From Nannocystis bainbridge (GTDB taxonomy: Bacteria > Myxococcota_A > Polyangia > Nannocystales > Nannocystaceae): a stretch of DNA of 64,000 nt. Shown here in pieces: positions 22,497 to 61,247 of the stretch. The notes beneath the pieces are model-generated. The model did no database searches and was not told where the DNA came from. It was given only the letters and a program-made list of their open reading frames with translations. Every line of letters begins with the position of its first letter. Positions within the stretch are counted from its first letter, which is position 1. The stretch is from contig NZ_JAQNDL010000003.1 in the NCBI RefSeq assembly GCF_028368995.1, positions 480,001 through 544,000 of the forward strand, given 5' to 3'. A program made the translations under genes and the position numbers.

Positions 22497-23087
22497 ATGT
22501 CGAATCCACCCCGTCTCCCTCAGTCCGAAGCCGAATTCCTGGAAATACTCGGAATTCTAAGCCAATTGACCGCTGATCCGGCCACGCTCGGCGAGCTTGT
22601 TCGTCCGCTGACGCCGGAGGATGAAGCGCTGCTCGCCCTCGATCCGGCGACGCTTCCAGCGGACCAGCGACAGGCGCACGCGAACGCCAGGCTGCGCCAG
22701 CTCTTCCAGGCCCACGTGAACCCGTCGACCGACCTGGGCCCGTCGACGATGCCCGATCTGGGCACGCTGACGATGCCCGACCTGGGCACGCCGACGATGC
22801 CCGACCTGGGCACGCTGACGATGCCCGACCTGGGCACGCCGACGATGCCCGACCTGGGCACGCTGACGATGCCCCACCTCGACCCGCCGACGATGCCCGA
22901 CCTGGGCACGCTGACGATGCCCCACCTCGACCTGCCGGCGATGCCCGACTTCGGCCTGTCCGACCCGGGCCCGCTGACGCCAGAGGATGAAGCGCTGATC
23001 GCCCTCGATCCGGCGACGCTTACGCCGGAACAGAGGCGAGCGCGCGCGCTCGCCATGGCGCGCAAGCTCCTGCGACCGCCCGAGTAG
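22497..23087 (+). CDS. Hypothetical protein with 8-aa tandem repeats flanked by a duplicated module
   Basis: ~9x TMPDLGT(L/P) between two PLTPEDEAL(L/I)ALDPATL copies. Confidence 0.7.
   Translation: MSNPPRLPQSEAEFLEILGILSQLTADPATLGELVRPLTPEDEALLALDPATLPADQRQAHANARLRQLFQAHVNPSTDLGPSTMPDLGTLTMPDLGTPTMPDLGTLTMPDLGTPTMPDLGTLTMPHLDPPTMPDLGTLTMPHLDLPAMPDFGLSDPGPLTPEDEALIALDPATLTPEQRRARALAMARKLLRPPE
22746..22961 (+). repeat. 24-bp tandem repeat, ~9 units, with 48-bp higher-order alternation
   Basis: ACGATGCCCGACCTGGGCACGC(T/C)G. Confidence 0.9.
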
Positions 23088-23199: not shown

Positions 23200-24303
23200 A
23201 TGCGCCGCCTTGCGCTGCTCGCCGCCGCTGCCGCCCTCGCGGGCTGCGGCACCGACAACTCGCCGGGGTTCTCCACGGGGCCCGGCGTGACGTCCGTGAC
23301 GACGCTGGGGACCTCGACCTCGTCCACCAGCTCGGCCGGCTCGTCGTCGTCGACCTCGACGTCCGGCGGCGCCGAGGACAGCGCCGCCGCCAGCACCGCC
23401 GGCGTCTCGACGTTCGACATGGACCCCGCGCCCGACGTCGGCGATCCGCAACCCGAGGGGTGCAAGGGCAAGATCGATTTCCTGTTCGTGATCAGCGCCT
23501 TCGGCACGATGCGCCACGAACAAGATCAACTCCTGGCGAGCTACGACGGCTTCGTGGACGTGTTGGCGTCGAAGTTCGCCGACTTCGACCGGCACGTGAT
23601 CAGCGTGAACACGGACGAGTTTTGGCGGGGCACGGGCTGCGAAGAGCCCGAGTTCTGTGGGAACGCGGGTAACTGCGGCCCATACGCGATGGACTACGTC
23701 TGCGGCTCGTACGCCGACACCGTGTTCAAGTGCGACCGGACCCGCGGCGCCGGCCTGCTCTACAACGCCGGCCCGCACGCCACGAACCACGTGTGCGAGC
23801 TCGACGGGGGAAACCGCTACATCATCAACGGCGCGACGGACCCGGACGCGTTCGCCTGCATCGCGCAGGTGGGGACCTTCGGCGCCAATTCACCGATCGC
23901 CGACACGCTCGTCGCGGCTGTGTCCGGCGAGCTCAACGGCCCGGGCGGCTGCAACGAGGGCTTTCTCCGCGACGACGCCCTGCTCGTGTTCGTCCTCATC
24001 ATGGACAACGAGGACGAGCAATCGGTCCTGAGCGCGAAAAAAGTTCATGACGCGGTGGTGGCCGCCAAGGGCGGGGACGAGCACGCGGTCGTCGGCCTGG
24101 CGATCATCCCGCAGCCGCTAGAGGGCGAGCCCGTGCCAGATTGCGTCTACGACGACGGCCTTTGGCAGCAACACCTACGCGAAGTCGTGCAGACCTTCGA
24201 CTACCACCGCGAAGGCAACATCTGCGCCGACAGCTACGACGGGTTCTTCAGCGAGGCCGCCGATCTCGTTCACGAGGCGTGTAACGCGTTCATCCCTCAG
24301 TGA
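23200..24303 (+). CDS. Lipoprotein with Ser/Thr linker and vWA-like domain
   Basis: LAGC lipobox, CKGKIDFLFVIS, CNEGFLRDDALLVFVLIMDNED. Confidence 0.85.
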   Translation: MRRLALLAAAAALAGCGTDNSPGFSTGPGVTSVTTLGTSTSSTSSAGSSSSTSTSGGAEDSAAASTAGVSTFDMDPAPDVGDPQPEGCKGKIDFLFVISAFGTMRHEQDQLLASYDGFVDVLASKFADFDRHVISVNTDEFWRGTGCEEPEFCGNAGNCGPYAMDYVCGSYADTVFKCDRTRGAGLLYNAGPHATNHVCELDGGNRYIINGATDPDAFACIAQVGTFGANSPIADTLVAAVSGELNGPGGCNEGFLRDDALLVFVLIMDNEDEQSVLSAKKVHDAVVAAKGGDEHAVVGLAIIPQPLEGEPVPDCVYDDGLWQQHLREVVQTFDYHREGNICADSYDGFFSEAADLVHEACNAFIPQ

Positions 24304-24310
24304 GCCGCGC

Positions 24311-25966
24311 TCACTGCCGCACGAGCGCCGCCCGGGCGTACTGAACGCCAGCGGTGGTCAGCTCGCCGACCGGGAACACTTGATCCCAGGGGTCGACCGC
24401 GACGCCGTAGACCGCGGACGCCTCCGGGCCGGACGAGAATTTGTGCTCGTACACAAGACCCTTGCGCCCGAGCACAACGCCGCGGAGCAACCCGCCGACC
24501 TTCACCACGCCCCCGGCGATCACCCCGCCATGCGCACTCACGGCGACGCCGGTCCCGTACGCGACATCAGCGGCCGCCTCGGGAACCCACCATAGCCGGG
24601 CCCCGCTGGCGTCGTAAAGCGCCAGCTCGATCCGCTGCGACGTCCCGTCGCCCGTCGCCCCGTAGCCGACGACGACCACGCCGTCCGGATGTGCCGCGGC
24701 GCCGAGATACATCCCTTGCCGCCAGCCGCCGCTTACCTCTTGCACGATCACCGGGTCGAGTCGCGCGCCGGTTTCAAGATCCAGGGGCACGAGGACGCCG
24801 CGTGACTCCGTCCAAATGCCGTTGTGTTCCCCGACGCTCGCGCCGGCGACCCACGCGACGCCGTCCTTGATCACCACGTCGAACGCGAGGTCGTCGAAGG
24901 AGTGTTTAAAGAGCTCGTTGCCGTTCGGGACGTGGTCCCACCCCTTCGCGCTCACGACCGCGACGCCCTCGGCGGTCATGCGCCAGACCTTGATGTCCGT
25001 GTCGCCGTAGCCCGAGGCCCCGAAGCCGACCGCGATGCAGCCGCCCGCGTCGTCGCTGGCGATGCCCCGCACCGTCGACCCCGCATCGGTCGGCATCTCC
25101 ACGCCGGTCTCCTGGCCCTCGGCGTCGAGCAAGACGATCCGCGGCCGCCACTTTTTGTCCGCCTGGCGGACGTTCATAGCGACCCAGATCTCGCCGGACG
25201 GCGTCAGCGCGACCGCATCGACCGCGCCCTCGCGTGAGTCGAGCACGATCGTTCCCTCGGCCCAGATCTCCGCGCCGTCCTCGCCTCGGCGCTTCCGGAT
25301 CGACGGGCGCAGCGCGCCGTCGATCAAGACGGCGCCGACCTCGATCGCGTCCCCCTCGGGGGTGGCGACGATGCGCCGCGAGATCGAGCCGCTCGGCCCG
25401 AGCCTGCCCCACGCGAGATCGCCGGGCGCGGGCGCGGCGACCTCGAACATCACCGGCGGCCACACGTGCGCGAGCGGCCCGCGCGTGGCGGTCACTTCGA
25501 GTACGTGCGCGCCGTTGTCCACGGCGCCGTAGCAGGGCGCGGCGCCGGTCCACACGCCCCCACCCTGGTCGGTGAACGGCTCCAGCTCGGCGCCGTCGAG
25601 CGTGGCGCGCACGAGGCTCGCGCCGCCCTCGGTCGTCACCGTCACCGGCACCGGGCCGGCGAGGTGGACTTTCGCGGGCACGTCGACGTCGAGGATCCGC
25701 GGCGGGACAAACTCGGCGTTGCCGGCCGTGCTGCCGGCCTCGCTCGTGCCCGTCGCGTCCGTCGTGCCCTCGTAGTCGCCGGTCGCCGGGCTCGGCTCGT
25801 CGCTTGTGCTCGCGGGGCCGGTCGTCTCCGCCGCTCCGCCCTCGCTGCTCGTACCTGTCCCGTGGGTCATGTCGTTGGCCAAGAAGTCGGCCCACGACGG
25901 CGCGTGATCGGCACAGGCGCCGAACGCGAAGAGCATGCAGAGGGACAAAGCGCGAGCGCGGTTCAT
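24311..25966 (-). CDS. Lipoprotein with Ig-like domain and beta-propeller-like repeats
   Basis: AFGAC lipobox, GGAGG SD, repeated AV.vA.d..G.i..vG blades. Confidence 0.8.
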   Translation of the reverse strand: MNRARALSLCMLFAFGACADHAPSWADFLANDMTHGTGTSSEGGAAETTGPASTSDEPSPATGDYEGTTDATGTSEAGSTAGNAEFVPPRILDVDVPAKVHLAGPVPVTVTTEGGASLVRATLDGAELEPFTDQGGGVWTGAAPCYGAVDNGAHVLEVTATRGPLAHVWPPVMFEVAAPAPGDLAWGRLGPSGSISRRIVATPEGDAIEVGAVLIDGALRPSIRKRRGEDGAEIWAEGTIVLDSREGAVDAVALTPSGEIWVAMNVRQADKKWRPRIVLLDAEGQETGVEMPTDAGSTVRGIASDDAGGCIAVGFGASGYGDTDIKVWRMTAEGVAVVSAKGWDHVPNGNELFKHSFDDLAFDVVIKDGVAWVAGASVGEHNGIWTESRGVLVPLDLETGARLDPVIVQEVSGGWRQGMYLGAAAHPDGVVVVGYGATGDGTSQRIELALYDASGARLWWVPEAAADVAYGTGVAVSAHGGVIAGGVVKVGGLLRGVVLGRKGLVYEHKFSSGPEASAVYGVAVDPWDQVFPVGELTTAGVQYARAALVRQ

Positions 25967-25990
25967 GGCGACCTCCGAGCGCAAAGCGGC

Positions 25991-26863: not shown

Positions 26864-28471
26864 CTACCGAGGGAAAAACGTGTGTTGCCGCTGCCCTTTG
26901 GCGACGCGAAGATCGAAGTGATCCAGGGCCTCGCGGATACACCCCGTCTCGGGCGAGCCCGAGGCGAGACCTCGAACGCTGGGCGGCTCGTCGGCGGCGA
27001 TGGTCGTCAAGAGCGGCTCGGGTTCGATCTTCGCGCGCTTCAGGCAAGCCCGTGCGCGAGCCTCGGCCCGCCGCATGCGCTTCGCCCACGGCTCGGGCCG
27101 CGGCAGCTCGGGCGACTCGACGACCGCGCTCGCGGCCGCAGGCTCGACGACCTCGGGCGACTCGACGGCCGCGCTCGCGGCTGCGAACTCGATGACCGCG
27201 CTCGCGGCCGCGGGCTCGACGACCGCGCTCGCGGCCGCGGGCTCGACGACCCGCGGCGGCTCGGGCGACCCGACGACCGCGCTCGCGGCCGCAGGCTCGA
27301 CGACGGGAGGCGCGACGACCCGCGGCTCGGCGGCGGGCGACTCGACGACCGCCGGCTCGCTCGGCGCGGCCGCCCACAGGAGAGCCACGGTCGCGCCGAC
27401 GCCAAGGGCGAACGATGCGAGGGAGGCCCCGAGGACGAACGGCAGCGATGGTCGCTTCGCCGGCGCCGCCAGGCGCGACTGCACGATCTCGAGTGCCCGG
27501 ACCAGCTCGGCCATGCTGCGGTGGCGCTCCGCTACACGCGACACGCCGCGCCGAAGCTCCACGACCAGCGGCCCGAGCTCGGGCGCAAACTCCTCCGCTC
27601 GGATCTCGCGGTGGCGCCACACCTCCCGCGCATACAAACGCCGCCCGGTGATCATCTCGTAGAGGACGACGCAGACCGAGAACACGTCCGTACCTGGCGA
27701 GACCTTGCCCTCGTTGACCCACTGCGGGCACATGTACGCCGGATTCCCGATCCACTCCATCTCCGCCGTCCGCCAGCGCTTGCCGGCCTCGGTCGGATCG
27801 CGTAGGTGCGGCTGCTCGTAGTAGTCCGCGGTCAAAAGTGCCGCACCGAAGTCGATCAGGCGCACGCGCTCGCCTTCGAGGATCACATTGTCCGGCTTCA
27901 CGTCGCGATGGATCACGCCGGCGTTGTGAACCGCCGCGAGCACACGGCCGAGGTCGATCGCCAGCGCGAGCGCTCGCGCGGGCGGTATCGTCGTCTCACG
28001 GCGCAAGCGGTCGCGGATCGTCTCGCCCGAAATGATCTGCATGGCGAAGTAAGGCTCGCCCTCGGTCTCTCCGATGTCGTAGATCGCCGGGACGCCCGAG
28101 TGCCCGATCGCCGCGAGCGCTCGGTATTCCCGCCGAAAGCGCTCCGTGAAGCTCGTGTCCGCATAGCTCGGCTTGATCCGCTTGATCGCCACGTTGCGAC
28201 AGGCGACGCGATCGTATGCGAGCTGAACGACGCCCATTCCGCCCACGCCGAGCGTTCGCAGCAGCGTGTATCGCCCGGCGAAGGGACCGAGCGGCAGGCC
28301 GGCCGCTTCCACCGGAGGCGCGTCGTCGTCGTCGTCGCCGAAGCCCGCGTCGAGCACCGGACTCACGTCGATCGGCGGATCGAGCAGGCCGAAGGTCAAC
28401 TCCCGCGGGGCCGGACGGGTGATATCGGCGGGGTCGAGCGGCGGGAACGGGCTATCCGCGAGGACGGTCAA
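26864..28471 (-). CDS. Hanks-type Ser/Thr protein kinase with TM and VVEPAAASA repeats
   Basis: LGVGGMGVV, VAIK, HRDVKPDNV, DFG, DVFS; TTG start with AAGGAG SD. Confidence 0.93.
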   Translation of the reverse strand: MTVLADSPFPPLDPADITRPAPRELTFGLLDPPIDVSPVLDAGFGDDDDDAPPVEAAGLPLGPFAGRYTLLRTLGVGGMGVVQLAYDRVACRNVAIKRIKPSYADTSFTERFRREYRALAAIGHSGVPAIYDIGETEGEPYFAMQIISGETIRDRLRRETTIPPARALALAIDLGRVLAAVHNAGVIHRDVKPDNVILEGERVRLIDFGAALLTADYYEQPHLRDPTEAGKRWRTAEMEWIGNPAYMCPQWVNEGKVSPGTDVFSVCVVLYEMITGRRLYAREVWRHREIRAEEFAPELGPLVVELRRGVSRVAERHRSMAELVRALEIVQSRLAAPAKRPSLPFVLGASLASFALGVGATVALLWAAAPSEPAVVESPAAEPRVVAPPVVEPAAASAVVGSPEPPRVVEPAAASAVVEPAAASAVIEFAAASAAVESPEVVEPAAASAVVESPELPRPEPWAKRMRRAEARARACLKRAKIEPEPLLTTIAADEPPSVRGLASGSPETGCIREALDHFDLRVAKGQRQHTFFPR

Positions 28472-28484
28472 GGCGCGCTCCTTC

Positions 28485-29291
28485 TCACTTGGGGGCCGGC
28501 AGCGGGGCGAAGATGACCTCGTACTCCTGGCGCCGCGAGGACGTGACGGGCGTGTCGCCCGCGAGATCGTCGCGCTCCGGCCAGGTGATGAAGCCGTGCT
28601 CCACGGCGCTTGCGAGGCGATTCTCGCAGCGACAGGGGTTCTCGGGATCCACGTGCTCGCAGACGTAGTCGAGATATTCGCCCAGGTCTTGACGCGCGCG
28701 TGTGTAGGCAGTGTTCGCGCCGGTCGCGGTGCCGAAAATCGCAGACACCTCGTCGCGCGAGAGCCCGAGAATGACACGCAAGATGAATGCGGCGCGCGGG
28801 GCCGCGGACAGGTTCATCAGGACGGTCGTCAGGCACTTGCGCTGTACCTCGTGCTGGAGCACGTACAGCCGCCGCGGGTCGCCGCGGATCAACGGGTGTC
28901 CCATTCCGAGCTTGGTCGTCCCGTCGAACCGCCCGAGGCTCTCGTCGAGGTTGAACCCGTGAACCCGGTGGCGAGCGGAGAACAAGCGGATGACCTGCCG
29001 GAGGCGCCCGAACAAGTCGGCCGCGGGCTCGGCGATCGGCTCTCCCTGTAAACGCCTCGCGCCCGGCCGCTTGTATTCGTGCTGACGCAGGCCCGGGCGC
29101 TTGTACGCGCCGGGCGGGTGGCCAGGCAGCACGTCTGGGGCATCCGGCTGGAGCATCGCCATGCCCGCCTCACGCGAGCCTGCCATCCAGGTAGCGAACA
29201 ACACCACGAGCGGGTGTTCGGCGGGCGGCCGCTCGGCGGGGGAGTCTTGTTGTGCGGCGGAGCCCGAGGATTCAGGGGTCGGGGTGGCCAT
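28485..29291 (-). CDS. Divergent ECF-type sigma factor with C-terminal Cys motif
   Basis: Region 4 LMNLSAAPRAAFILRVILGLSRDEVSAIFG..TRARQDL then CEHVDPENPCRC; region 2 not clearly recognisable. Confidence 0.7.
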   Translation of the reverse strand: MATPTPESSGSAAQQDSPAERPPAEHPLVVLFATWMAGSREAGMAMLQPDAPDVLPGHPPGAYKRPGLRQHEYKRPGARRLQGEPIAEPAADLFGRLRQVIRLFSARHRVHGFNLDESLGRFDGTTKLGMGHPLIRGDPRRLYVLQHEVQRKCLTTVLMNLSAAPRAAFILRVILGLSRDEVSAIFGTATGANTAYTRARQDLGEYLDYVCEHVDPENPCRCENRLASAVEHGFITWPERDDLAGDTPVTSSRRQEYEVIFAPLPAPK

Positions 29292-30563: not shown

Positions 30564-30749
30564 CGGCCGATATGGCGCGAGATGTCCTTGTGGCGCCGGC
30601 CGAGCACGATGGCGAACCCCGCGCGCCGCAACCGGCCAGGCTGCGGCCCGGGCGGTGCCAGCCGCGAAGGATCGGCGCGAGCTCGAGGACGCGGCCTTCG
30701 GCCTCCGTCCAGCCCGCGCAGATGCCGGCTCGCTGCGCCTGCCTGACCC

Positions 30750-31478: not shown

Positions 31479-31558
31479 GCCCGATATGGCCGGCGCGGAC
31501 GCCGGCGCGCCGCTAGGCTAGGAGCTTGCGCACGAATCCATGCGACGCGGGTTGAGCG

Positions 31559-33717: not shown

Positions 33718-34123
33718 CGGCAACTATGGCCGCCGGCAACGTTGCTGCGCCGGCGCCCCGCCGCCCAACGGGCGGGGCGCCGCCGTCTGCGAGCGTAGGA
33801 CGCTCTTCGTTAACTAGTTAATTCCGTAAAGCAGATCGCGCGCGCGCGGTCAGACCGCCGCGGCCGTGGACGCGAGCTTCCGGCGCCGGTGACGTCGCAA
33901 CACTCCAGGAACGCGGGCCACGCCGCGATCTGATGTCGCAGGTTCGTGGACGCGCGCTCTGGGCAGGGGTCGCAGTGCGGGCCGAGCCGCAGTCAACCCC
34001 CACGCGGGGCCCGGGAGCGGACCGCCGGTCGCGACACCTCACGGCCCACGGCCACCGGTGCGATCTCCCTGCGCAAGCCGGAACCCTTGCGGTAGCGGCG
34101 ACGCGTCCGGTACCGTCCGCGCG

Positions 34124-34845: not shown

Positions 34846-36093
34846 ATGCGCAATGGTCGATTCTCCAACGCGGCCGGCCAGGACCAACGGAAGGACTTCG
34901 CCCGCGATCGGGACCGCATCCTTTACTGCAGTGCCTTTCGTCGTCTCGCGGGGGTCACTCAAGTGGCCAGCGCGTCCGAAGGTGTCCTGTTTCACAATAG
35001 GATGATCCATAGCCTCAAGGTGGGACAAATTGCGCGTCGGCTTGTTGAGCAGGCGCTGGAGCAGAATAAAGCGCTAGATATCGATCCAGAGGTCGCCGAA
35101 GCCGCTGGGCTGGCTCACGACCTTGGCCATCCACCCTTTGGCCATATCGGAGAGGAGACCCTTAGCGAGCTACTAAAGGAACTCGGAGATCCTGAGGGCT
35201 ATGAAGGTAATCCTCAGTCCTTCCGAATTCTTGTGCGACTAGCCATCCGTTTCGACGATACGCCCGGCCTGGACCTCACGAGGGCTACCCTGGCCGCCGT
35301 CATGAAATACCCGTGGCTACACAAGAAGGATGATCCGAAGAAAGGGCGCAAATGGGCAGCGTACCACTCGGACGAACCAATGTTCAAGTTCGCGCGTGAA
35401 GGGCACGAGGCAGATCGCCCCACGCTTGAGGCCCAGATTATGGATTGGGCAGATGATATTGCCTACTCCGTGCATGATCTCGAGGATTTTCACCGAGCAG
35501 GGATGATTCACTGGTCGCAGATTCAAGAGAAGCTAGAGCTTGAAGCAATCATCAGCGGGGCTCGCGCCAAGTGGCCCGATGCTCCAACAGACGCGGTCAA
35601 ACGACTTGAGGACGCAGCCCAACGGCTCTTCGCCATACTTCCAAGCCAAATGCGGGAGCCATTCGTAGGTAATGCAGATCAAAGACGAAAGCTCCGTTGG
35701 TGGACATCGACGTTGATTGGTCGGTACGTGCAACAAACCAGTGTAGAGGAAAAGCGGGTCACTAAACCTCCGGAATTCGAGGACGAGGTTCGCTTCCTCA
35801 AGCAAATTACATGGCGCTACGTGATCGAGAACACAGCCCTCGCTGGCCAGCAATTCGGCCAGCGAAAGATACTCAGCGAATTATTCCATGATCTCCACGA
35901 GATAGCCCGGTCGCCCAAACTGCGTAATGCCTTTCCTCATCGTAGCCGACATCTTCTCTCAGAGGAGGGAATTCAATACCCTCGTGCTGTGGCCGATGCG
36001 CTAGCGAGCATGACTGAAGCCGAGGTCGTGGCGTTGCATATGCGCTTGCGCGGAATCGATGGCGGTACGGTGCTGAACCCTATCGTTCGTTGA
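34846..36093 (+). CDS. dgt: Deoxyguanosinetriphosphate triphosphohydrolase (dGTPase, HD domain)
   Basis: RDRDRILY..AFRRL..VTQV, HNRMIHSLKV, LAHDLGHPPFGH.GE, EGNPQSFRI, KYPW, MDWADDIAYSVHDLED. Confidence 0.95.
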   Translation: MRNGRFSNAAGQDQRKDFARDRDRILYCSAFRRLAGVTQVASASEGVLFHNRMIHSLKVGQIARRLVEQALEQNKALDIDPEVAEAAGLAHDLGHPPFGHIGEETLSELLKELGDPEGYEGNPQSFRILVRLAIRFDDTPGLDLTRATLAAVMKYPWLHKKDDPKKGRKWAAYHSDEPMFKFAREGHEADRPTLEAQIMDWADDIAYSVHDLEDFHRAGMIHWSQIQEKLELEAIISGARAKWPDAPTDAVKRLEDAAQRLFAILPSQMREPFVGNADQRRKLRWWTSTLIGRYVQQTSVEEKRVTKPPEFEDEVRFLKQITWRYVIENTALAGQQFGQRKILSELFHDLHEIARSPKLRNAFPHRSRHLLSEEGIQYPRAVADALASMTEAEVVALHMRLRGIDGGTVLNPIVR

Positions 36094-37127: not shown

Positions 37128-37191
37128 ATATGGCGCCGCAGGGTGCGACTGTGCCGCCCGCACGGCCGTCCGCGCGGCGCGCTCGCCAGAT
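37128..37191. promoter_or_regulatory. Back-to-back pair of GCCA(T/G)AT putative late promoters
   Basis: GCCATAT (-) at 37128-37134 and GCCAGAT (+) at 37185-37191, each 8 nt before an ATG. Confidence 0.65.
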
Positions 37192-40816: not shown

Positions 40817-40840
40817 GGCGCGCGCGCGCCATATCCGGCC

Positions 40841-44641: not shown

Positions 44642-44683
44642 GTGCCCGCGGCACAAGCGGGGGGACAGCGGCCATATGCGCCG

Positions 44684-45674: not shown

Positions 45675-45757
45675 GCGTCGGCACGGTGTGAGCGACGCGG
45701 CGTCCGCGGCGTCGCGTCCGAGCGACGCAGCGAACGCCGGCCGTGCCATATCCGGCC

Positions 45758-47652: not shown

Positions 47653-47707
47653 ACGCATGGCCGAGCCGCAGCCGCAGCCGACCAGCCTGACTCCGCCGCA
47701 GCGACCT

Positions 47708-47860
47708 CCCGAGCCCGTCGCGCAGCGTCAGGAGTTCCCGTTCCTCCATCGTCTTGACGCGCGTCGACGCCAGGAACGCGGCGCTGGCGGCCTGTTCGCG
47801 CGGCGGGAGTGCGGCCAGCGTGCCGCTCAGCCGCGGCAAGGGCGACTCGCCGAGGCGTCG
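47708..47860 (-). pseudogene. Internally deleted remnant of the gene starting at 54473
   Basis: LSGTLAALPPREQ..AAFLASTRV.TMEERELL.LRDGLG matches ~54126-54340. Confidence 0.8.
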
Positions 47861-51529: not shown

Positions 51530-51862
51530 ATGAGCACGGCGACGGAGGCGACGTGGCGCAAGCGGGTCGACGGCTGGATCGCCAGCGGTCAGACCTGCAA
51601 GGAGTACGCGGCGCGCATCCGGGTCAATCCACACACGCTGGGATGGTGGAAATGGCGCCTGCATGCGGCGCGGGCCGATGCATGCGACCAGGGCGCGGGC
51701 GAGGCCGGCTTCGTCGAGGTGACGCAGGAGGTCGGTGCCTTGCTGACGACCGAGCCCGGCGTGCTCGAGCTCGAGGTCGGGTGCGTGGTGCTCCGGATCC
51801 GTGGCCATGTCGAGGCCGACATGCTCGGGCGCGTGCTCGATGTGCTGGAGGGGCGACGATGA
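51530..51862 (+). CDS. tnpA: IS66 accessory protein TnpA
   Basis: WRKRVDGWIASGQTCKEYA...TLGWWKWRL, FVEV. Confidence 0.88.
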   Translation: MSTATEATWRKRVDGWIASGQTCKEYAARIRVNPHTLGWWKWRLHAARADACDQGAGEAGFVEVTQEVGALLTTEPGVLELEVGCVVLRIRGHVEADMLGRVLDVLEGRR

Positions 51863-52200
51863 TCCCGGCGTCGGTGCGGATCTTCGTATGCACCGAGCCG
51901 CAGGACATGCGGCGCGGGTTCGATGCGCTCGCGCTCACCGTGCGGCAGGTGATCGGCGAGGACCCGCGCGGCGGGGCGGTCTTCGTGTTCGCCAGTCGCA
52001 GGTCCGATCGCGTGAAGGTGCTGTGGTGGGACCGTAACGGCTACTGCCTGATGTACAAGCGGCTGCATCGAGCGCTGTTCCGCGTACCGGCGACGGACGA
52101 GCCGTCGCAGCGCTCGGTGGTCGTCGACACGAAGGACTTCGCGGAGCTGCTGCGGGGCGTCGAGCGAGCCCCACGCCGCGAGGGTCGAAATCGCTCTTGA
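51859..52200 (+). CDS. tnpB: IS66 accessory protein TnpB
   Basis: PQDMRRGFDAL, VFVF..RR.DRVKVLWWDRNG..L.YKRL. Confidence 0.95.
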   Translation: MIPASVRIFVCTEPQDMRRGFDALALTVRQVIGEDPRGGAVFVFASRRSDRVKVLWWDRNGYCLMYKRLHRALFRVPATDEPSQRSVVVDTKDFAELLRGVERAPRREGRNRS

Positions 52201-52230
52201 CGTGAATGCTCAAAAGCGTACGTAGGAGGC

Positions 52231-53901
52231 GTGACCGAGGTCGAGCTCGTCCGCCATGAACTCGAGAGCCGCATGCGCGAGCATGCGGACACGATCGACA
52301 AGCTGACCGCCGAGCGCGAGCGGTACAAGACGCTGTACATGGAGCTGCTCGAGCGCTGCAAGCTGCTCGAGAAGGGCATCGTGGTCGGCAAGAAGGCCGA
52401 GCGCTTCACCGCCGGCGACGATCCGCAGCTCGCCCTGCAGATCCTCGAGATGATGCTCGCCGGCCGCGACGTCGTCGTGGAGCAGGTCGAGGAAGAGCTC
52501 GAGCTCGACGACGCCGAGGATGAAGACGCCCACGACAACGAGGTCGATCGTCCTGCGTCTACCCGGCGACGCTCTCGCGGCCGTCGGCCCCTTCCCGAGA
52601 ATCTCCCGCGGGTCGAGATCGAGGTCCTGCCGCCCGAGGTCGTGCGCGAGGGCCTCGACGCGTTCCAGCGGATCGGCCAGGTCGTCAGCGAGGTCGTCGA
52701 ACGTCGACCGGCCTCGCTCGTCGTCGCGCGGATCGTCCGGCCGAAGTTTGTCCGCAAGGGTGAGGCGCCGGGCACGGTCGAGGACCAGGCGATCGAGGCA
52801 CCGGCGGTGCAGATTGCCGAGCGGCTGGAGCTGCCGATCGAGCGCGGCCTCGCCGGCCCCGGGCTGCTCGCCGACACGATCGTCCATCGCTGGCAAGACC
52901 ACCTGCCCGCGAACCGCCTCGAGGCGCTCTACGCCCGCGACGGGCTGCAGCTCGCGCGCTCGACGATCTGCGGCTGGCACGAGCAACTCGCGGATCTCGT
53001 CGAGCCGCTCGTTGAGGCGATGTTTGCCGACGCCTTCACGCAGCCCTATCTCTGCACTGACGCGACCGGCGTCCTCGTGCAGGCAAAGGAGCAGTGCCAG
53101 CGCGCCCACTTCTGGGTGCTCGTGGCGCCGGAGCGCCACGTCCTCTTCCGCTTCTCGCCGGCCCACGACAGCGAGGCCGTCGATCGGCTGCTGAAGGGCT
53201 ACACGGGCTATCTCGTCGCCGACGCCCACGCGGTCTACGATCATTTGTACGCGAGCGGCGATGTCGTCGAGGTCGGCTGCTGGGCCCACTGCAGGAGGTA
53301 CTTCTTCAAGTGCCTCGGTTCGGAGCCAGAGCTGGCCCGGCACGCGCTGTCGCTGATCAAGGCGCTCTTCAAGATCGAGCGCGCGCTGGCGACGGCGCCC
53401 CGCAAGAAGCGAGAGTCGGTCCGCCAGGCGAAGTCGAGACCGATCGTCGACGCCTTCTTCCTCTGGTGCGACCAGCAGGCCGCGCTCGCCCTCGATGGTA
53501 CGCCGCTCGCCAAAGCCCTCGGCTACGCCCGCAATCAGCGGATCGCCCTGCAGCGCTTCCTTGGCGACGGCCGGCTGCCCCTCGAGAACAACATCTCCGA
53601 GCGCAACCTCCGGCGCGAGGTCATCGGCCGCAAGAACTGGCTGTTCCTCGGCAGCGAGGAGGGCGCCCGCGCCAACACACTCTTCGTGTCGCTCCTGGCG
53701 AGCTGCCAGCTCCACCGGATCGAGCCCTGGGCATACCTCCGCGACCTGCTGTGCCTGCTCCCGTCGTGGCCCCGGCGCCGCGTCCTCGAGCTCGCACCGG
53801 CCTTCTGGCAGGAGACTCTGAAACAGGAGGACACTCAGCAGCGGCTCGCCACCAACGTCTTCCGCGGCGTGTCCCTCGGGAAGCATACGAGCGAGGTGTA
53901 G
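52231..53901 (+). CDS. tnpC: IS66 DDE transposase TnpC
   Basis: LPENLPRVE, DHLP.NR, TDATG, ADAHAVY, CWAHCRR, ENNISER.LR..VIGRKNWLF. Confidence 0.96.
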   Translation: MTEVELVRHELESRMREHADTIDKLTAERERYKTLYMELLERCKLLEKGIVVGKKAERFTAGDDPQLALQILEMMLAGRDVVVEQVEEELELDDAEDEDAHDNEVDRPASTRRRSRGRRPLPENLPRVEIEVLPPEVVREGLDAFQRIGQVVSEVVERRPASLVVARIVRPKFVRKGEAPGTVEDQAIEAPAVQIAERLELPIERGLAGPGLLADTIVHRWQDHLPANRLEALYARDGLQLARSTICGWHEQLADLVEPLVEAMFADAFTQPYLCTDATGVLVQAKEQCQRAHFWVLVAPERHVLFRFSPAHDSEAVDRLLKGYTGYLVADAHAVYDHLYASGDVVEVGCWAHCRRYFFKCLGSEPELARHALSLIKALFKIERALATAPRKKRESVRQAKSRPIVDAFFLWCDQQAALALDGTPLAKALGYARNQRIALQRFLGDGRLPLENNISERNLRREVIGRKNWLFLGSEEGARANTLFVSLLASCQLHRIEPWAYLRDLLCLLPSWPRRRVLELAPAFWQETLKQEDTQQRLATNVFRGVSLGKHTSEV

Positions 53902-53945: not shown

Positions 53946-54473
53946 CTCGCGGCGGCCAGGCGCCGCGGCGGGCGTGTGGGGCGGCTCGTCGCGCGGCGGT
54001 GCCTCGAGACGGCGATCGGTCTCGACCTGCCCGTCGCGCAGCCCGTCAGCGTCGGCCATCGCGCGCGACAGCGCCGCCGACGTGAGCGCCCCGATCGCAT
54101 GCGCCCGGCTCCACCGCGGCGGACTCCCGAGCCCGTCCCGGAGCGCCAGGAGTTCGCGTTCCTCCATCGTCTCGACGCGCGTCGACGCCAAGAACGCCGC
54201 CACGGCAGCAGCCCGCAGCGGGGTCTGTTCGCGCGGCGGGAGGGCGGCCAGCGTGCCGCTCAACTCCGCGGCGAGGCCGGCGGACAGCCGCTCGACGACC
54301 TCGGCGCCTTTGAGCGGCGACGGCTCGCCGAGAGCGTCGGCGTAGGCGCGCTGGTTCTGCGCCTGCGCGCGCACTTCGGCGAGGGCTGCTTCGAGGCCGC
54401 TGGCCTGCTCTTCGAGGTCGATCGCGATCTGCAACGCCGCGGCGTGCTCAGGGTTCGTTTGTGCGGTGGTCAT
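53946..54473 (-). pseudogene. Hypothetical protein interrupted by IS66 six codons before its stop
   Basis: ATGA overlap with dnaB; removing the IS restores ...GRRE-RRSAKR* (51228-51248). Confidence 0.75.
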
Positions 54474-55828
54474 GCTGCTCTCCGTTCCAAGGGTGCAAAG
54501 CGGGTCTGTTGGGCAATCCATGCAAGCTTGATCAGGTCCTCGGGGCCGTGGCGATTCTTCGCGACGCGCAACTCGGCGAGCCCGGCTGCGGCGGCCCGCT
54601 TGTCGGCGGTCGCATCGACGGTCAGCGTCAGCTCGGGCCGGTGCAGCAGCCCGACGAAATCCGCCTCCGCCTCGATGTCTCCGCCCTCGCGCAGATCTTC
54701 GAGCGTGGGCCGCTGATCGGCCCGTCCCGCCGCCATGCGGTTGACCTGCGCCAACGCGAGGACAGGCGCTTCCGCGGCCTTCGCAAGATCCTTGAGGGCC
54801 CGCGCGATGTCCCCGATCTCCGTGTATCGCTGCTCGCGCCGGTCGCTGCGCGCCTTTTGCAGGTAGTCGATCACGATCAACGGTGGGACTTGTTGGTCGA
54901 CGGCGGTCGCGCGGAAGGCCATGGCCCGGCTGCGGATCTCGGCGACATCGCGGGTGCGATCGTCGATCCAGAACGGCGCGAGCCCCAGCCGACACCAGCC
55001 GTCCGCGAGGGCCTGCCGCGCGTGTTCGGGCGGCGTCTGGGACCGCACCGCGGCGAGGTCGCAGCGGCTCTCGCGGGCAAGGGCGCGCTCGATCAATTGC
55101 GTAGCCGTCATTTCGAGCGAGAAGAAGAGAACGGGCCGCAACGGCCGCTCGCCGGCGACGACCTGGCGCGAGCGCGGGACGGCGAGGTCGCACGCGATTC
55201 CGATCGCTAGCGCCGTCTTGCCTACGCGCGGCCTGGCCCCGAGGACATATAGATTCCCGGGCTCCATCCCGCCGCCGAGCACCTTGTCGAGCTCGGGGAA
55301 GCCGAACGGGACCCGCGGCGGGGGCCCAGCGGCCCAGCGCTCGCCGAGGTGTTGCAGCACGTCGCGGGCGCAGGTCGGGCCCTCGGCAGCGACGGCCGGC
55401 GCATCGCGCCCGATCTCGGCGAGCAGTTCTTCGACGGCCGCCGGCTCCGCCTCCGGGTCCCGCGCCGCCTCGGCCACGCGGAGCGCGGCTTCGCGGACCC
55501 GCCTGATGCGCGCGCGCCTGCGGATCTCTGCGGCATAGCGCCGCAAGATCGGCGCCGCGCGGGTGGCCTCCTCGCCGAGCCGGGCAAGTGAGCGCCCCGC
55601 GAGCTTGTGCTCGCCGCGGCCCCGGATCTCGTCCTCGACGGAAAGCACGTCGATCGGGACGCCCCGCGCCGCAAGCTCCAGCACGGCCCCCCAGATCTCC
55701 CGGTGGCCCTGGCCGTCCTCGAAGTCGTCCACGCGCAGCCATGCGACTTGCGCGAGCAGGCCGGAGAACACCAGCACCGACGCCAACACTACGCGCTCCG
55801 CCTCTTGCGCCGGGCGACTTGCGTTCAT
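54470..55828 (-). CDS. dnaB: DnaB-like replicative helicase
   Basis: EAERVVLA, GARPRVGKT, FFSLEM, VIDYLQ, LAQVNR, DLREGGDIEAEAD, VAKNRHG. Confidence 0.96.
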   Translation of the reverse strand: MNASRPAQEAERVVLASVLVFSGLLAQVAWLRVDDFEDGQGHREIWGAVLELAARGVPIDVLSVEDEIRGRGEHKLAGRSLARLGEEATRAAPILRRYAAEIRRRARIRRVREAALRVAEAARDPEAEPAAVEELLAEIGRDAPAVAAEGPTCARDVLQHLGERWAAGPPPRVPFGFPELDKVLGGGMEPGNLYVLGARPRVGKTALAIGIACDLAVPRSRQVVAGERPLRPVLFFSLEMTATQLIERALARESRCDLAAVRSQTPPEHARQALADGWCRLGLAPFWIDDRTRDVAEIRSRAMAFRATAVDQQVPPLIVIDYLQKARSDRREQRYTEIGDIARALKDLAKAAEAPVLALAQVNRMAAGRADQRPTLEDLREGGDIEAEADFVGLLHRPELTLTVDATADKRAAAAGLAELRVAKNRHGPEDLIKLAWIAQQTRFAPLERRAA

Positions 55829-55832
55829 CCGT

Positions 55833-55886
55833 TCACCATGTGTCTAAATGGTCCTGTTCTATAGGTCATGTCTGTTCGGACATGGC
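55833..55886. repeat. Degenerate 14-bp-periodic array inside the element
   Basis: Cores at 55853, 55867, 55881 (plus 55837, off phase). Confidence 0.55.
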
Positions 55887-55887
55887 C

Positions 55888-56403
55888 TTAGCGCGACTCG
55901 GTGCGGCGCCGGATCCGTTCGCACGCGCGCCGCCAACGCGAGCGGACCTGCTGCGGGCGCAGCCCCGGGTCGCTATCGTGCAGACGCGCCAGGATCACTT
56001 GCCGCTGCGCGTCCGTGACCAGGTCCAGGCAAGCCCGCAGCCTGCGCCCCGCGTCCTTGGCGTCGGGCTCGTCCCGCGCGACCAACCCGGCCACGCCGTC
56101 CCCGATGAAGACGATCCGCCCGGCCTGCCGTTGGAGTTTCCTGCACACCGTTTGAATCCCCCAGCGCAGGTGGGTCGCGAATCGCACGCTGCGGCCGAGG
56201 TCGAACGAGCGGACCCGGTCGACCAGCACGGCGCCGACCTCGGCCTCGACCTCGTCCGCGTCGACGCGCGCGGCGGCGGCCAGGGTGCGAGCCAGGGCCC
56301 TCGCATACGGCAGAAATGCCCGCATGATCGCGGCCTCGTCGCGGGCCTCGAACATGCGGCGCTCGTCCTCGGCGTCGACGAACTGGGCGCTACAGCGGCT
56401 CAC
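55888..56403 (-). CDS. Miniature sigma-70-family factor (171 aa)
   Basis: Region 2 FLPYARALAR...RVRSFDLGRSVRFATHLRWGI; shortened region 4 LDLVTDAQRQVILAR..QQVRSRWRRACERIR. Confidence 0.8.
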   Translation of the reverse strand: MSRCSAQFVDAEDERRMFEARDEAAIMRAFLPYARALARTLAAAARVDADEVEAEVGAVLVDRVRSFDLGRSVRFATHLRWGIQTVCRKLQRQAGRIVFIGDGVAGLVARDEPDAKDAGRRLRACLDLVTDAQRQVILARLHDSDPGLRPQQVRSRWRRACERIRRRTESR

Positions 56404-56612
56404 GGGCGCCTCTCCCTGGCGAGCGCGACGACCTCGGGCGGAAGGCCGCCCCGATCGGCAGCACGAAGGAGCGGCGCGAGCTTGGCGGCGCGTTCGCGGT
56501 CGAGCCGCTCGGCCTGGTCGCGGCACTCGGCGGCGACGGCGAGGTAGGCGCGCGCCGCTCCCCGAAGCCTGCCCGTTTCGACCTGTCTCCCAGGACATGC
56601 CACGCGAGTCAC
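56400..56612 (-). CDS. Small hypothetical protein
   Basis: GTGA overlaps at both ends; helical, 70 aa. Confidence 0.55.
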   Translation of the reverse strand: MTRVACPGRQVETGRLRGAARAYLAVAAECRDQAERLDRERAAKLAPLLRAADRGGLPPEVVALARERRP

Positions 56613-57181
56613 GGAGTACCCCCGATCCAGCGCGGCGCAGGCAGCGGCGACGGGCGAGGCCGCGGCCGCGGCCGGGTGGGCCTCGGCGGCATCGACAGCG
56701 GCAGGCCAGGGGCGGCCCCGGCGAGCATCGGGACCCAGCGGGCCTTGTGCTCCCGTGCGCGCGAAATCTGAGCGTGCCCCGCAAGGGTGAGGCGCCAGCC
56801 GCGGCGCGTGTGCCAGTCGATCCGCGGGGCGTCGGCGAGAGCGGCCCGGACCAGCTCGACCCCGTAGCGCTCGACGATGCGGGCGGCGCGGACGCGCTCG
56901 ACCGGCCGCACAGGTGCGAGGGCGCCGGCGGCCCCGCGCACAGGATCGGCAGGCGCGAGCGTCCAGCCGGTCCGCAAGTGGCCCTCGACGCGCCGGCGCT
57001 CGCGGTGGATCGCGCCGGCCTCTTCGAGACGGCGCAGGTGGCGATACACCGTCGCGCGGTGAAGGCCGGACAGCGCGGCGAGCCGATCGGCGCTCGGGCA
57101 GGCCCACCCGCCCGCGAGCTCGCGCCGCAGCACGTCCAACAAGGGCCTCGCCTGCTCATTCAGACAGCTATTTTCCGCCAT
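56609..57181 (-). CDS. wHTH protein resembling phage replication-initiator N-termini
   Basis: CPSADRLAALSGLHRATVYRHLRRLEEAGAIHR. Confidence 0.78.
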   Translation of the reverse strand: MAENSCLNEQARPLLDVLRRELAGGWACPSADRLAALSGLHRATVYRHLRRLEEAGAIHRERRRVEGHLRTGWTLAPADPVRGAAGALAPVRPVERVRAARIVERYGVELVRAALADAPRIDWHTRRGWRLTLAGHAQISRAREHKARWVPMLAGAAPGLPLSMPPRPTRPRPRPRPSPLPAPRWIGGTP

Positions 57182-59488: not shown

Positions 59489-59700
59489 GGGAGCAAGTCC
59501 GCCTCGTAGATGAACACCAGCAATGAACGGACGCGGTAGCGAAGGACCTCGCCGCTTGGCGCGTAGACAAACGCCGTGAGGGACGCCGAGGCACCGACGC
59601 GATCGGCGGCCTCCTCGGCGGCCTCCTCGGGCGATGCGGCGTCGATCTCGATCTCCTCCGCGTGGCCCGAGATCCGGACATGGTACTTGGGACAGGTCAC
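59485..59700 (-). CDS. Small hypothetical protein (71 aa)
   Basis: Overlaps the integrase stop; IEIDAASPEEAAEEA motif common in phage small proteins. Confidence 0.65.
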   Translation of the reverse strand: MTCPKYHVRISGHAEEIEIDAASPEEAAEEAADRVGASASLTAFVYAPSGEVLRYRVRSLLVFIYEADLLP

Positions 59701-61247
59701 ATCGCCCCCCCGGTCGCGTGAGCGAGGCGGCCCGAAAGCGCGTTCGACCCAGGACGCTCCGCCCCTTCGCCGTAGATCTCGCGGGTCATCTTGGGGTCAT
59801 GGCCAAGCGCCCACGCGATGTCATCGATCGGCGCGCCCTCCTCCATGCTCAGGTGGACGAAGCTGTGGCGGAGGTCGTGCGGATGCGGCCACGGCTTCGG
59901 CAGGCCGGCCAGGATTACAGCCTCCCGCATCACACGCCACACGGCGGTCTTGAGGCTTTCGGGATCATGGGTCCCGAAGAGCGGGCCGCGGACGCGGGGG
60001 CCCCACGTCCCTTGCTTCCCGAACATCAGCTCGATCTGCTTCGCGGCGACCCGAGCGGCATCGTCGTCAACGGCGATCTTCCGCTCCTTGCCCGACTTCG
60101 TGCGGACCAACTTGATCTTGTTCCCGCGGATGTCGCCGGCGTCGACGCGCGCCATCTCGTCGATGCGCGTCCCGGAGAGAAGCAGCATGCGAAAGAGCGT
60201 GTGCGGTGCCGTGTGATGCGCGAGGTCCTGGCCTTCGAGCCGACGCCGACTCCCGTCCTCGACGCGCGCGTCGTACAGGTCCGCCGCGACGGCCCGCAGG
60301 TCTCGCATTTCCTCAGACGTGATCGGCCGCGGAGGCTTGCGGCGATGCTTGGCCCGGACCCCGTAGTCCGGATCGCACTGGATCACGCCGCGGGCGCGCG
60401 CGAAGCGAAGCAGGTTCCGCAAGCGAGCTAGACAAGCCTTCGCAGCCGAGCTCCCCGCGTTCTTGCAAAGCCCCTTGTACCAGGCATCGATGATCTCGGC
60501 GGTGAGGTCGACGGCGCGGAACTCGGCGAGCGCCGGCCGCTCCGTCCCGGTGTGCTCGGGCTTCTGCGCGCGCTCCCGGAGCTTGGTGCGCAGGTACCGA
60601 TACGCGCGCACCGACTTCGGCCGCAGGTGGCCGAGCGCCTCTTGCTCGATCTTGTCGGCGAGCCAGTGATCGGCGACGAGCTGCACCGTCGCCTCCGGAG
60701 TGAGGGGAGCGAGCGCCGCGCTGTCGATCGTCTCTTCGGGCTTGCGCTTCCGCTTGGAAGTCCGCGGGACGACTTCGTGCGTCGGCTGGCCGGTCGTCTC
60801 GCCGACCCTGCGCAGGTGGGCGAGCAGGCGGCCCAAGCACTTGACGAGCTTGCGGGCGACAGGCTCGTGGTAGGACTTGCAGAGTTCGGCGAACCAGGCG
60901 CGCACGACCGGCGGATGCAACGCGGTGGTCGGCAACGCAGCGAGCGACCCGAGACGGCGCAAGAGCATCGCGGCGTCCGTGTGCCCGCGAAACCCGAGGT
61001 CGCCGTCCCGCTCCCTGGCCTTCAGGTGTTCGAGCCAATCCCGCGCGGCGGCCTCGACCGAACCAGCCGGCGGCCCCGCAGGGTCGAGGCCAGGGAACGC
61101 GACCTCATGGGCACGCGCGTGATTCAGGATCGAGGTCAGCGAGCGCCGCGCGGTCGCGGCAACGCTCGGGGTGTAAGCGTGCGCAACCGTCGACACCCAT
61201 TGCTCGATCGTCTCGGGGGTGAGCTTGCTTGCCCGTACGTCACGCAA
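59697..61247 (-). CDS. Tyrosine recombinase/integrase with repeated core-binding domains
   Basis: SGTRIDE (R), RTKSGK (K), HDLRHS, LGHD, IYG (Y); start uncertain (frame open across attR to 61418). Confidence 0.93.
   Translation of the reverse strand: MRDVRASKLTPETIEQWVSTVAHAYTPSVAATARRSLTSILNHARAHEVAFPGLDPAGPPAGSVEAAARDWLEHLKARERDGDLGFRGHTDAAMLLRRLGSLAALPTTALHPPVVRAWFAELCKSYHEPVARKLVKCLGRLLAHLRRVGETTGQPTHEVVPRTSKRKRKPEETIDSAALAPLTPEATVQLVADHWLADKIEQEALGHLRPKSVRAYRYLRTKLRERAQKPEHTGTERPALAEFRAVDLTAEIIDAWYKGLCKNAGSSAAKACLARLRNLLRFARARGVIQCDPDYGVRAKHRRKPPRPITSEEMRDLRAVAADLYDARVEDGSRRRLEGQDLAHHTAPHTLFRMLLLSGTRIDEMARVDAGDIRGNKIKLVRTKSGKERKIAVDDDAARVAAKQIELMFGKQGTWGPRVRGPLFGTHDPESLKTAVWRVMREAVILAGLPKPWPHPHDLRHSFVHLSMEEGAPIDDIAWALGHDPKMTREIYGEGAERPGSNALSGRLAHATGGAM

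Follow-up and report, generated by a model that had tools for sequence, protein, structure and literature searches.

Phage- and plasmid-encoded sigma factors are a known route by which mobile genomes take over the transcription of their host. Gp36 of phiEco32 and the sigma factor of phage 7-11 have been described as phage-encoded, distant homologues of sigma-70 (PMC12276001 and PMC8948821, both in extract). The promoters of gp36 share one word, AATGTA, centred at -11.5, and the protein places its N-terminal domain on the clamp helices, while its weak C-terminal domain is stabilised by a phage partner, gp79 (PMC12276001, same extract). T4 gp55 and SPO1 gp28 and gp34 are phage sigma factors that retarget the host core polymerase to classes of phage genes (PMC9429907, in extract). 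Here we describe a candidate for this company in a stretch of 64,000 nucleotides (nt) of the Nannocystis bainbridge genome (assembly GCF_028368995.1), which we call the window; the genome measures 11 Mb and has 72% G+C. A gene for a protein of 171 residues lies there in the replication operon of an integrated element. As a whole, the evidence seems to us best explained, with a confidence somewhat above even, by a divergent element-encoded sigma factor with a clipped region 4 that redirects the host polymerase to promoters carrying the word GCCATAT. A limited literature search found no sigma factor described for myxobacterial mobile elements.

As with gp36 and the 7-11 protein, this would be a small sigma factor of a mobile genome, distant from the sigma factors of its host and paired with a single short word in the -10 region. 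It differs from them in that no sequence kinship was detected through the PHROGs families, in its myxobacterial host and integrated element, in the placement of its gene within a replication operon and in the internal deletion of its helix-turn-helix (HTH). T4 gp55 uses a -10-type element and does not read a -35 box; its dependence on gp33 and the sliding clamp underlies its coupling to replication. Unlike gp55, the 171-residue protein keeps a remnant of region 4, and a weak -35-like block stands before four of the seven motif sites. Moreover, no sliding clamp or gp33-like family was recognised among the 33 element proteins compared with PHROGs, or in the Pfam scan of the element. The protein itself has no PHROG match, and it may still be distantly akin to gp55.

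Comparison with cellular sigma factors gives a similarly mixed picture. The best sequence matches of the protein and its family in the PDB are group 3 sigma factors (FliA, WhiG, SigF and RpoH) and RpoS, with SigA also included. The sigma-28 consensus is TAAA-N15-GCCGATAA, which GGCACA-N15-GCCATAT resembles in its spacing and in a GCC..ATA core. Unlike group 3 sigma factors, the protein has no region 3, and identities to them are 15-20%. It shares the two-domain architecture (sigma-2 plus sigma-4) and the approximate size of the extracytoplasmic function (ECF) sigma factors of group 4. TIGR02989 and TIGR02937 are its best NCBIfam models, and it differs from the ECF group in scoring 20 bits against TIGR02989, where the cut-off is 124.55, in having a region-1.2-like helix, and in its neighbours (the initiator, a 70-residue ORF product and DnaB), none of which matched an anti-sigma family. 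By these comparisons we would class the protein as a divergent mobile-element sigma factor with an unusual region 4: a sigma-2 domain is found, an intact sigma-4 and scores above the curated cut-offs are not, and we infer an action like that of gp36 or gp55.

In the mechanism that we propose, the protein would be made alongside the replication proteins once the integrase-proximal operon is switched on. Its region 2 would then dock on the beta-prime clamp helices of the host core RNA polymerase, and the polymerase would be redirected to element promoters in which GCCATAT, 5-8 nt before the start, serves as a -10-like box and gives rise to leaderless transcripts. That the protein still acts as an initiation factor seems to us slightly more probable than the contrary. 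That GCCATAT is its -10 element is a possibility to which we give a little less than even chances. Presumably it is this protein, rather than another factor, that reads GCCATAT, and the mRNAs concerned are presumably leaderless.

The protein and its place among sigma factors

The gene is enclosed in a maximal open reading frame (ORF) of 423 codons (55888-57159). A preliminary description of this DNA, made from the letters and their translations, had placed a 171-codon gene within the longer ORF, and its coordinates hold (Table 1). Judging by the codon-position G+C pattern, the sigma frame is coding only from about 55920 to about 56300, with G+C of about 0.92 at third positions (GC3) and about 0.50 at second positions (GC2); the upstream part of the 423-codon ORF is noncoding in this frame, and two other frames are coding there in turn. 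The start is supported because the GTG overlaps the TGA of the preceding 70-codon ORF (GTGA, 56400-56403) and a Shine-Dalgarno-like run, GGGAGAGG, lies 6 nt 5' of it. An ESM Atlas entry has the same 171-residue form from residue 1, and an alternative gene call starts at M17 and gives 155 residues. The 171-codon ORF is a real gene.

Its product is similar to sigma factors beyond chance, as judged by sequence comparison. A phmmer search against 1.84e9 representatives returned 11 non-self matches (E 5.7e-6 to 3.7e-4) over query residues ~10-125, and all except one of these carry Pfam Sigma70_r2 above the gathering score (10 of 11). On the protein itself the Sigma70_r2 profile scores 18.6 bits (E 1.6e-3) over residues 27-96, covering profile positions 2-70 of 71. 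When the single sequence was searched against the PDB, only WhiG and RpoS were matched (E 0.42 and 1.9). The segment FDLGRSVRFATHLRWGI pairs in the PDB alignment with FDPERGFRFSTYATWWI of RpoS, with 8 of 17 residues identical by hand count, and the region-2.3/2.4-like residues F, RF, T and W are partly kept.

Relatives of the protein sit in comparable genetic surroundings. A second, weak match in the same genome (E 6e-5), on contig 3, belongs to another integrated element, which is related to the first and identical to it in gene order and whose proteins are 31% (integrase), 53-55% (initiator), 34% (a 385-residue protein) and 39% (DnaB) identical to those of the window element. Its sigma factor, of 220 residues, is ~29% identical to the 171-residue protein, and the gene ends in a stop codon that overlaps the start of dnaB. 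A third element, more distantly related, is found in a genome of the same genus (G010), where the genes for the initiator, a 146-residue sigma factor and DnaB are joined by ATGA overlaps. A profile of the three sigma factors found six more proteins: four of 219-228 residues, one of 146 residues from another Nannocystis, and one of 246 residues that carries regions 2, 3 and 4. One 146-residue relative is named a sigma-70-family factor by NCBI. Against TIGR02937 (cut-off 42.9) the 220-residue relative scores 49.2 bits and the 146-residue relative 48.8, over nearly the whole profile; both pass this superfamily model only, and no FliA or SigBFG model. The order initiator, sigma, DnaB recurs in all three elements seen. 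As to distribution, searches of the other 59 relatives with the 171-residue protein did not find the sigma family, and the initiator as query matched 2 of the 73 genomes of the order (the window genome and G010) and none of the remaining 71. The 862-residue protein described below also matched 2 of the 73, in a stricter first look that may be missing weak matches. Neither query turned up a more closely related element in these genomes. By its sequence, the protein is a member of a small, genus-restricted Nannocystis clade of element sigma factors that are translationally chained to their neighbours. The preliminary description had placed the gene in a replication operon, and indeed it lies between the initiator and DnaB genes, with GTGA chaining upstream.

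A profile of the family, built from eight sequences with the full-length 246-residue sigma factor excluded, gave 60 PDB matches at E <= 0.01, comprising 59 sigma factors and one FixJ. The best were RpoS (3.3e-10) and RpoH (1.4e-8), and the RpoH match extends from region 2 through region 4. The 60 included no ECF sigma factor.

Structure prediction agrees with this assignment. The AlphaFold2 (AF2) model, built on a 17-row alignment, has a mean predicted local distance difference test (pLDDT) value of 78.5, and its residues 11-93 form four helices with pLDDT 88-97. The VIA-align comparison was run on the sigma-2 domain alone because the two domains float relative to each other. Residues ~6-96 superpose on domain 2 of sigma-70, sigma-S and sigma-32 with Z 10-12 and a root-mean-square deviation of 2.1-3.3 A over 87-92 residues, the first helix falling on region 1.2. 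Each of the 50 rows shown is a sigma chain or a sigma-domain complex, at identities of 15-20%. Since helical bundles can reach Z below ~13 through a common arrangement, these Z values count only jointly with the sequence evidence. Foldseek with the whole model gave no PDB or BFVD match at E <= 0.001 (best 0.028 and 0.0072, respectively); its named rows are sigma factors, and its named BFVD rows are phage sigma factors (best E 0.0072). Taken together, it is very probable that the protein belongs to the sigma family. The preliminary description, which had assigned it to the sigma-70 family and would have given up that assignment if no sigma-2 fold were found, is thus borne out by the phmmer matches, the PDB matches and the superposition. 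The group-3-like region 2.3 that it had noticed is present as a string, and the PDB searches put region 2 nearer to groups 1-3 than to the ECF group.

The C-terminal half is less regular. No match to Pfam Sigma70_r3, by which membership of group 3 was judged, was found in the protein; an 18-residue linker joins regions 2 and 4, and residues 101-114 are disordered in the AF2 model (pLDDT < 50), in keeping with an earlier remark that there is essentially no region 3. The region-4 remnant is modelled as helices 115-128, 131-143 and 150-170 (pLDDT 65-73). At the site of its residues DPGL, all eight aligned relatives carry 7-8 residues (PSQMAPRL or LRAAGERL) that are missing from the 171-residue protein alone. 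According to the alignment, the missing stretch is the first helix of the HTH; on either side of it, the region-4.1 helices and the recognition helix (PQQVRSRWRRACERIRRR) can be aligned to the other members. An intact sigma-4 HTH is therefore not present, and the shortened HTH noted earlier is real in the sense that the loss is confined to one of nine aligned sequences. The word "miniature", by which the gene had been introduced, does not fit: 171 residues are ordinary for a two-domain sigma factor, and relatives of 146 residues exist. A separate model of residues 111-171 again gave three helices (pLDDT 70.9), and Foldseek with region 4 alone returned five weak rows (E 3.5-9), four of which are sigma-4-containing chains, with TM scores of 0.30-0.45; these values decide neither for nor against a sigma-4 fold.

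Binding of the protein to the core polymerase is a prediction, obtained by modelling the complex with residues 1-420 of the host beta-prime subunit. The complex scored 0.67, and none of three controls rose above 0.00; of 157 solved complexes 116 attain this mark, as do 2 of 215 mismatched pairs. Agreement between the runs extended to at least 53% of the contacts, with a pLDDT of 71 or more for the partner. The predicted interface joins beta-prime 256-299, the clamp coiled-coil, with sigma residues 23-31 and 48-61 (regions 2.1 and 2.2). A complex model with the clamp helices had been proposed as a check in the preliminary description, and region 2 is indeed predicted to lie there. The score expresses likeness to a binding-competent sigma-2 domain and may reflect likeness to solved holoenzymes.

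The GCCATAT motif at element genes

GCCATAT occurs eight times in the window, against 1.57 copies expected, and none of 100 shuffles reached eight. Between 30 and 46 kb there are seven copies where 0.14 are expected from the genome frequency, and no other 7-mer of that interval is as enriched. Genome-wide it has 96 copies, where the median for 7-mers of the same composition is 182.5 (rank 179 of 630). The pattern GCCATA[TG]-N5-8-[AG]TG has eight matches in the window, seven of which head genes supported by GC3 and point the same way as these genes; the eighth, at 26693, was dropped, being the head of a 71-codon ORF within an opposite-strand gene. The spacing from motif to start codon is N6 in five of the seven sites, N5 in one and N8 in one. 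Counted from the first base of the start codon the motif lies at -13 to -7, with no Shine-Dalgarno-like run between the two, and this position suits the -10 box of a putative leaderless mRNA. A weak G+C block, cGGCrCa, stands 15 nt upstream of the motif at four of the seven sites; the combined pattern GGC[AG]C[AG]-N15-GCCATA[TG] occurs five times in the genome, four of them in the window element. One of the seven motif-headed units, a 90-residue HTH_3 regulator, diverges from a plus-strand operon and is putatively leaderless, like lambda cI.

The possibility that GCCATAT is a palindromic operator was considered and rejected: the word is no palindrome, its right-hand flank is not constant (cgg, ccg, gcg, cgc), and each of the seven sites points the same way as its gene. 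Elsewhere in the genome, three sites (C1:1455138, C1:2176579 and C2:245729) share aCATGTC(c/t)(t)Tt..GCCATAT in an AT-richer context, with downstream frames that are not coding-like; they may be small-RNA promoters or a small repeat.

The related elements offer a comparison. No GCCATAT cluster is found in the contig-3 element or in the G010 element. The contig-3 element has TGGGCG-N13-CGGCGAGG instead, with 13 copies in the genome, four of them in the element, and three copies stand 7 nt before start codons. The three genes concerned are homologues of the motif-headed genes for 862 and 125 residues and, as the third, the next large gene, which is positionally equivalent. The first block starts 34 nt upstream of the start codon in the one element as in the other. 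A pair of related elements, with sigma factors that are ~29% identical, thus carries different upstream words at matching genes. This pattern fits a private pair of sigma factor and promoter, the co-variation being one between two elements only.

Weighing the explanations

Several observations weigh against reading the protein as a working sigma factor for GCCATAT promoters. Its scores lie below the curated cut-offs (18.6 against 24 for Pfam PF04542; 16.7 against 42.9 for TIGR02937), the region-4 part of TIGR02937 is unmatched, and no PHROGs family matched it. No orthologue beyond the protein itself was found among 5.8e9 word-indexed proteins or among the 1.84e9 searched with phmmer, and none of 60 relatives gave a match at E <= 0.001. 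When modelled by itself, region 4 gave no convincing superposition on sigma-4, and the HTH deletion could render region 4 useless. As for the motif, two of the eight GCCATAT copies (22060 and 35141) head no gene, and the -35-like block, being all G/C in a genome this rich in G+C, holds little information. GCCATAT also departs from the TAnnnT rule. In the contig-3 element CGGCGAGG could instead be a site of ribosome binding, and the parallel between the two elements would then be weaker. An ECF-like sigma factor at the edge of the window element (28485-29207) is a possible alternative reader of GCCATAT, and an IS66 insertion at 51530-53901 suggests that the element may be decaying.

Two functional claims of the preliminary description are also not supported. 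It had tied the motif to late transcription; phage structural genes were not recognised in the element (Pfam, 51 proteins; PHROGs, 33 proteins), nor were late genes, and one of the GCCATAT units is a Cro/CI-type regulator, which misfits a purely late class. It had also held that the sigma factor couples replication to transcription, where the only tie seen is co-transcription and translational chaining.

Among the alternatives, the one that survives best is that the gene is a decaying relic of a working element sigma factor, which lost an HTH helix within a defective, insertion-interrupted element, another factor now reading GCCATAT. We consider this unlikely. The deletion in region 4, unique among nine aligned sequences, would be explained, as would the TIGR02937 score of 16.7 bits (~49 in the relatives), the presence of IS66, the status of the protein as a singleton without an orthologue, and the palindrome-bearing gap of 59 nt before dnaB, whereas the relatives overlap dnaB. 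Against a relic stand 171 open codons with a GC3 of ~0.92 through to the C-terminus, and an intact translational-coupling overlap and Shine-Dalgarno-like run. Its sigma-2 model is very confident and its predicted core interface canonical; moreover, at ~29% identity to the nearest kin, the deletion need not be recent.

Alternatively, the protein could be a working sigma factor with other targets, such as transcription at the replication origin, and GCCATAT could be read by the host holoenzyme or by an ECF-like sigma factor, or act as a translation signal for mRNAs that have no Shine-Dalgarno sequence. The link between protein and motif is a putative one, and in three elements the gene keeps the same position, between those for initiator and helicase, which hints at a connection with replication. 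An ECF-like sigma factor with a kinase partner adjoins the element, and five host sites outside it have GCCATAT at the same distance from the start of ORFs of at least 60 codons, two of which (on contig 1 and contig 5) are plausible genes. Against this alternative, the word is rare and below average in the host genome, and its cluster is absent from two related elements with other sigma factors. The fixed orientation and the placement at -13 to -7 suit a -10 box, and GCCATAT has no complementarity to the anti-Shine-Dalgarno sequence. We regard this alternative as quite unlikely.

Finally, it is very unlikely that the protein is a polymerase-binding modulator instead of an initiation factor, with sigma-2 occupying the clamp helices and displacing host sigma factors (as a shut-off or decoy) and a region 4 that no longer reads DNA: the predicted interface does use sigma-2 only, region 4 has no intact HTH, and among the nearest clusters of the ESM Atlas is a viral one with the automatic name 'putative RNA polymerase-binding protein' (a lead only), but the residues that sigma factors use on the -10 strand (F, RF, T, W) are partly kept, the relatives are complete two-domain sigma factors, and an element-specific motif in the -10 position needs a reader.

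The surrounding element and what the locus may mean

The element in which this divergent sigma factor would act is headed, on the minus strand, by an operon of the order tyrosine integrase, two proteins without known function (371-385 and 295 residues), replication initiator, 70-codon ORF, sigma, a gap of 59 nt, and DnaB. The element also includes genes for an amidase, for a ddrB-ParB-domain protein and for a Cro/CI-type HTH protein, as well as the inserted IS66. Features and their coordinates are collected in Table 1.

Table 1. Coordinates of the features discussed (positions in the window unless another contig is named).
Feature	Position	Strand	Basis or remark
Sigma-like gene, 171 residues	55888..56403	minus	GTG start 56403-56401, TAA stop 55890-55888; coding GC3; region-2 homologues
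Sigma-2 domain, residues ~11-96: region-1.2-like helix and regions 2.1-2.4, including FDLGRSVRFATHLRWGI	56116..56373	minus	AF2, VIA-align, Pfam
Region-4 remnant, residues ~115-170, three helices not four	55894..56061	minus	Alignments, AF2
Deletion site, residues DPGL 146-149	55957..55968	minus	Alignments
70-codon ORF between initiator and sigma	56400..56612	minus	GTGA overlaps on both sides
Replication initiator, phage-O-like, winged HTH	56609..57181	minus	Pfam HTH_36 1.9e-8; PHROG replication-initiation families, phrog_270 1.2e-7
Tyrosine integrase, head of the element	59697..61247	minus	Pfam Phage_integrase 1e-14; phrog_1 8.5e-42
DnaB-family replicative helicase	54470..55828	minus	Pfam DnaB_C 7.6e-61; TIGR00665 3.3e-75; phrog_19
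Inverted repeat CATGTC-N6-GACATG	55866..55883		In the 59-nt gap from sigma stop to dnaB start
GCCATAT, N6, ATG of 173-codon ORF	30570..30576	minus	
GCCATAT, N5, GTG of amidase gene (242 residues)	31484..31490	minus	
Variant GCCATAG, N6, GTG of 325-codon ORF	33724..33730	minus	
GCCATAT, N8, ATG of 90-residue HTH_3 (Cro/CI-type) regulator	37128..37134	minus	
GCCATAT, N6, GTG of 862-residue ddrB-ParB-domain protein	40828..40834	plus	
GCCATAT, N6, ATG of 125-residue protein	44671..44677	plus	
GCCATAT, N6, GTG of 493-residue protein	45745..45751	plus	
ECF-like sigma factor (Sigma70_r4_2 match only)	28485-29207	minus	Element edge; followed by a Ser/Thr protein kinase, the pair spanning 26864-29207
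Related element with its own 220-residue sigma factor	~1536000-1572000 of contig 3, same genome		

The GTG of the 70-codon ORF overlaps the TGA of the initiator gene (56609-56612), and its longer frame of 235 residues has no family match in Pfam, NCBIfam or PHROGs. This small ORF has no counterpart in the two related elements and is a candidate partner of the sigma factor or of the initiator. That it might be a frameshifted tail of the initiator was considered and dropped: neither of the two related initiators produced a supporting tblastn match in the frame. On the other side of the sigma gene, the inverted repeat follows directly on the stop codon, with a minus-strand core of TGTCC-GAAC-AGACA; both the gap of 59 nt and the repeat are absent from the two related elements. 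Iterons or other origin-like repeats were not evident in 53.8-61.4 kb, and a scan for sigma-70-type promoters over 54-62 kb gave no sites.

Neither a tRNA gene nor a clear att direct repeat came to light in the search for the ends of the element. The element or its cargo may extend down to ~22 kb, because the genes at 23200-25984 have homologues within the contig-3 element. Next to these genes, an ORF for 173 residues contains nine head-to-tail copies of a 24-nt period (22681-22968), which encode a repeated peptide like PDLGT(L/P)TM. An HD-domain phosphohydrolase gene at 34846-36093 (dGTPase-like, phrog_21998) lies in a patch of 60% G+C, against 72% around it, and is probably recently acquired cargo; one GCCATAT copy falls inside this stretch. 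The IS66-family unit is complete, with a TnpB-like Orf2 and a DDE transposase of 556 residues, and sits between the plus-strand genes and the replication operon. A direct repeat of 107 nt, 84% identical (47685-47791 and 54103-54209), flanks the IS66 region and may have arisen by duplication of part of a gene or as the scar of a rearrangement.

Food for speculation is a broader scheme, which we think rather unlikely as a whole: genus-specific elements would each keep a private, fast-evolving sigma factor with a co-evolved two-block promoter. In the window element the sigma factor, having lost the first HTH helix of region 4, would depend mainly on the -10 box and start leaderless mRNAs at GCCATAT, perhaps with the 70-residue protein as a partner in the manner of gp79 or gp33; or the sigma factor would also bring polymerase to the origin, one operon thereby switching on both replication and transcription.

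The locus offers a compact and testable pair, made of one orphan sigma factor and seven near-identical promoter-like sites directly at start codons, and the sister element on contig 3, with another sigma factor and another motif, provides a natural orthogonality control. Should the link between protein and motif fail, the gene would simply be a divergent or decaying element sigma factor. If the link holds, the pair would supply an orthogonal set of sigma factor and promoters for high-G+C myxobacteria, and the protein would be a natural example of how far region 4 of a sigma factor can be reduced.

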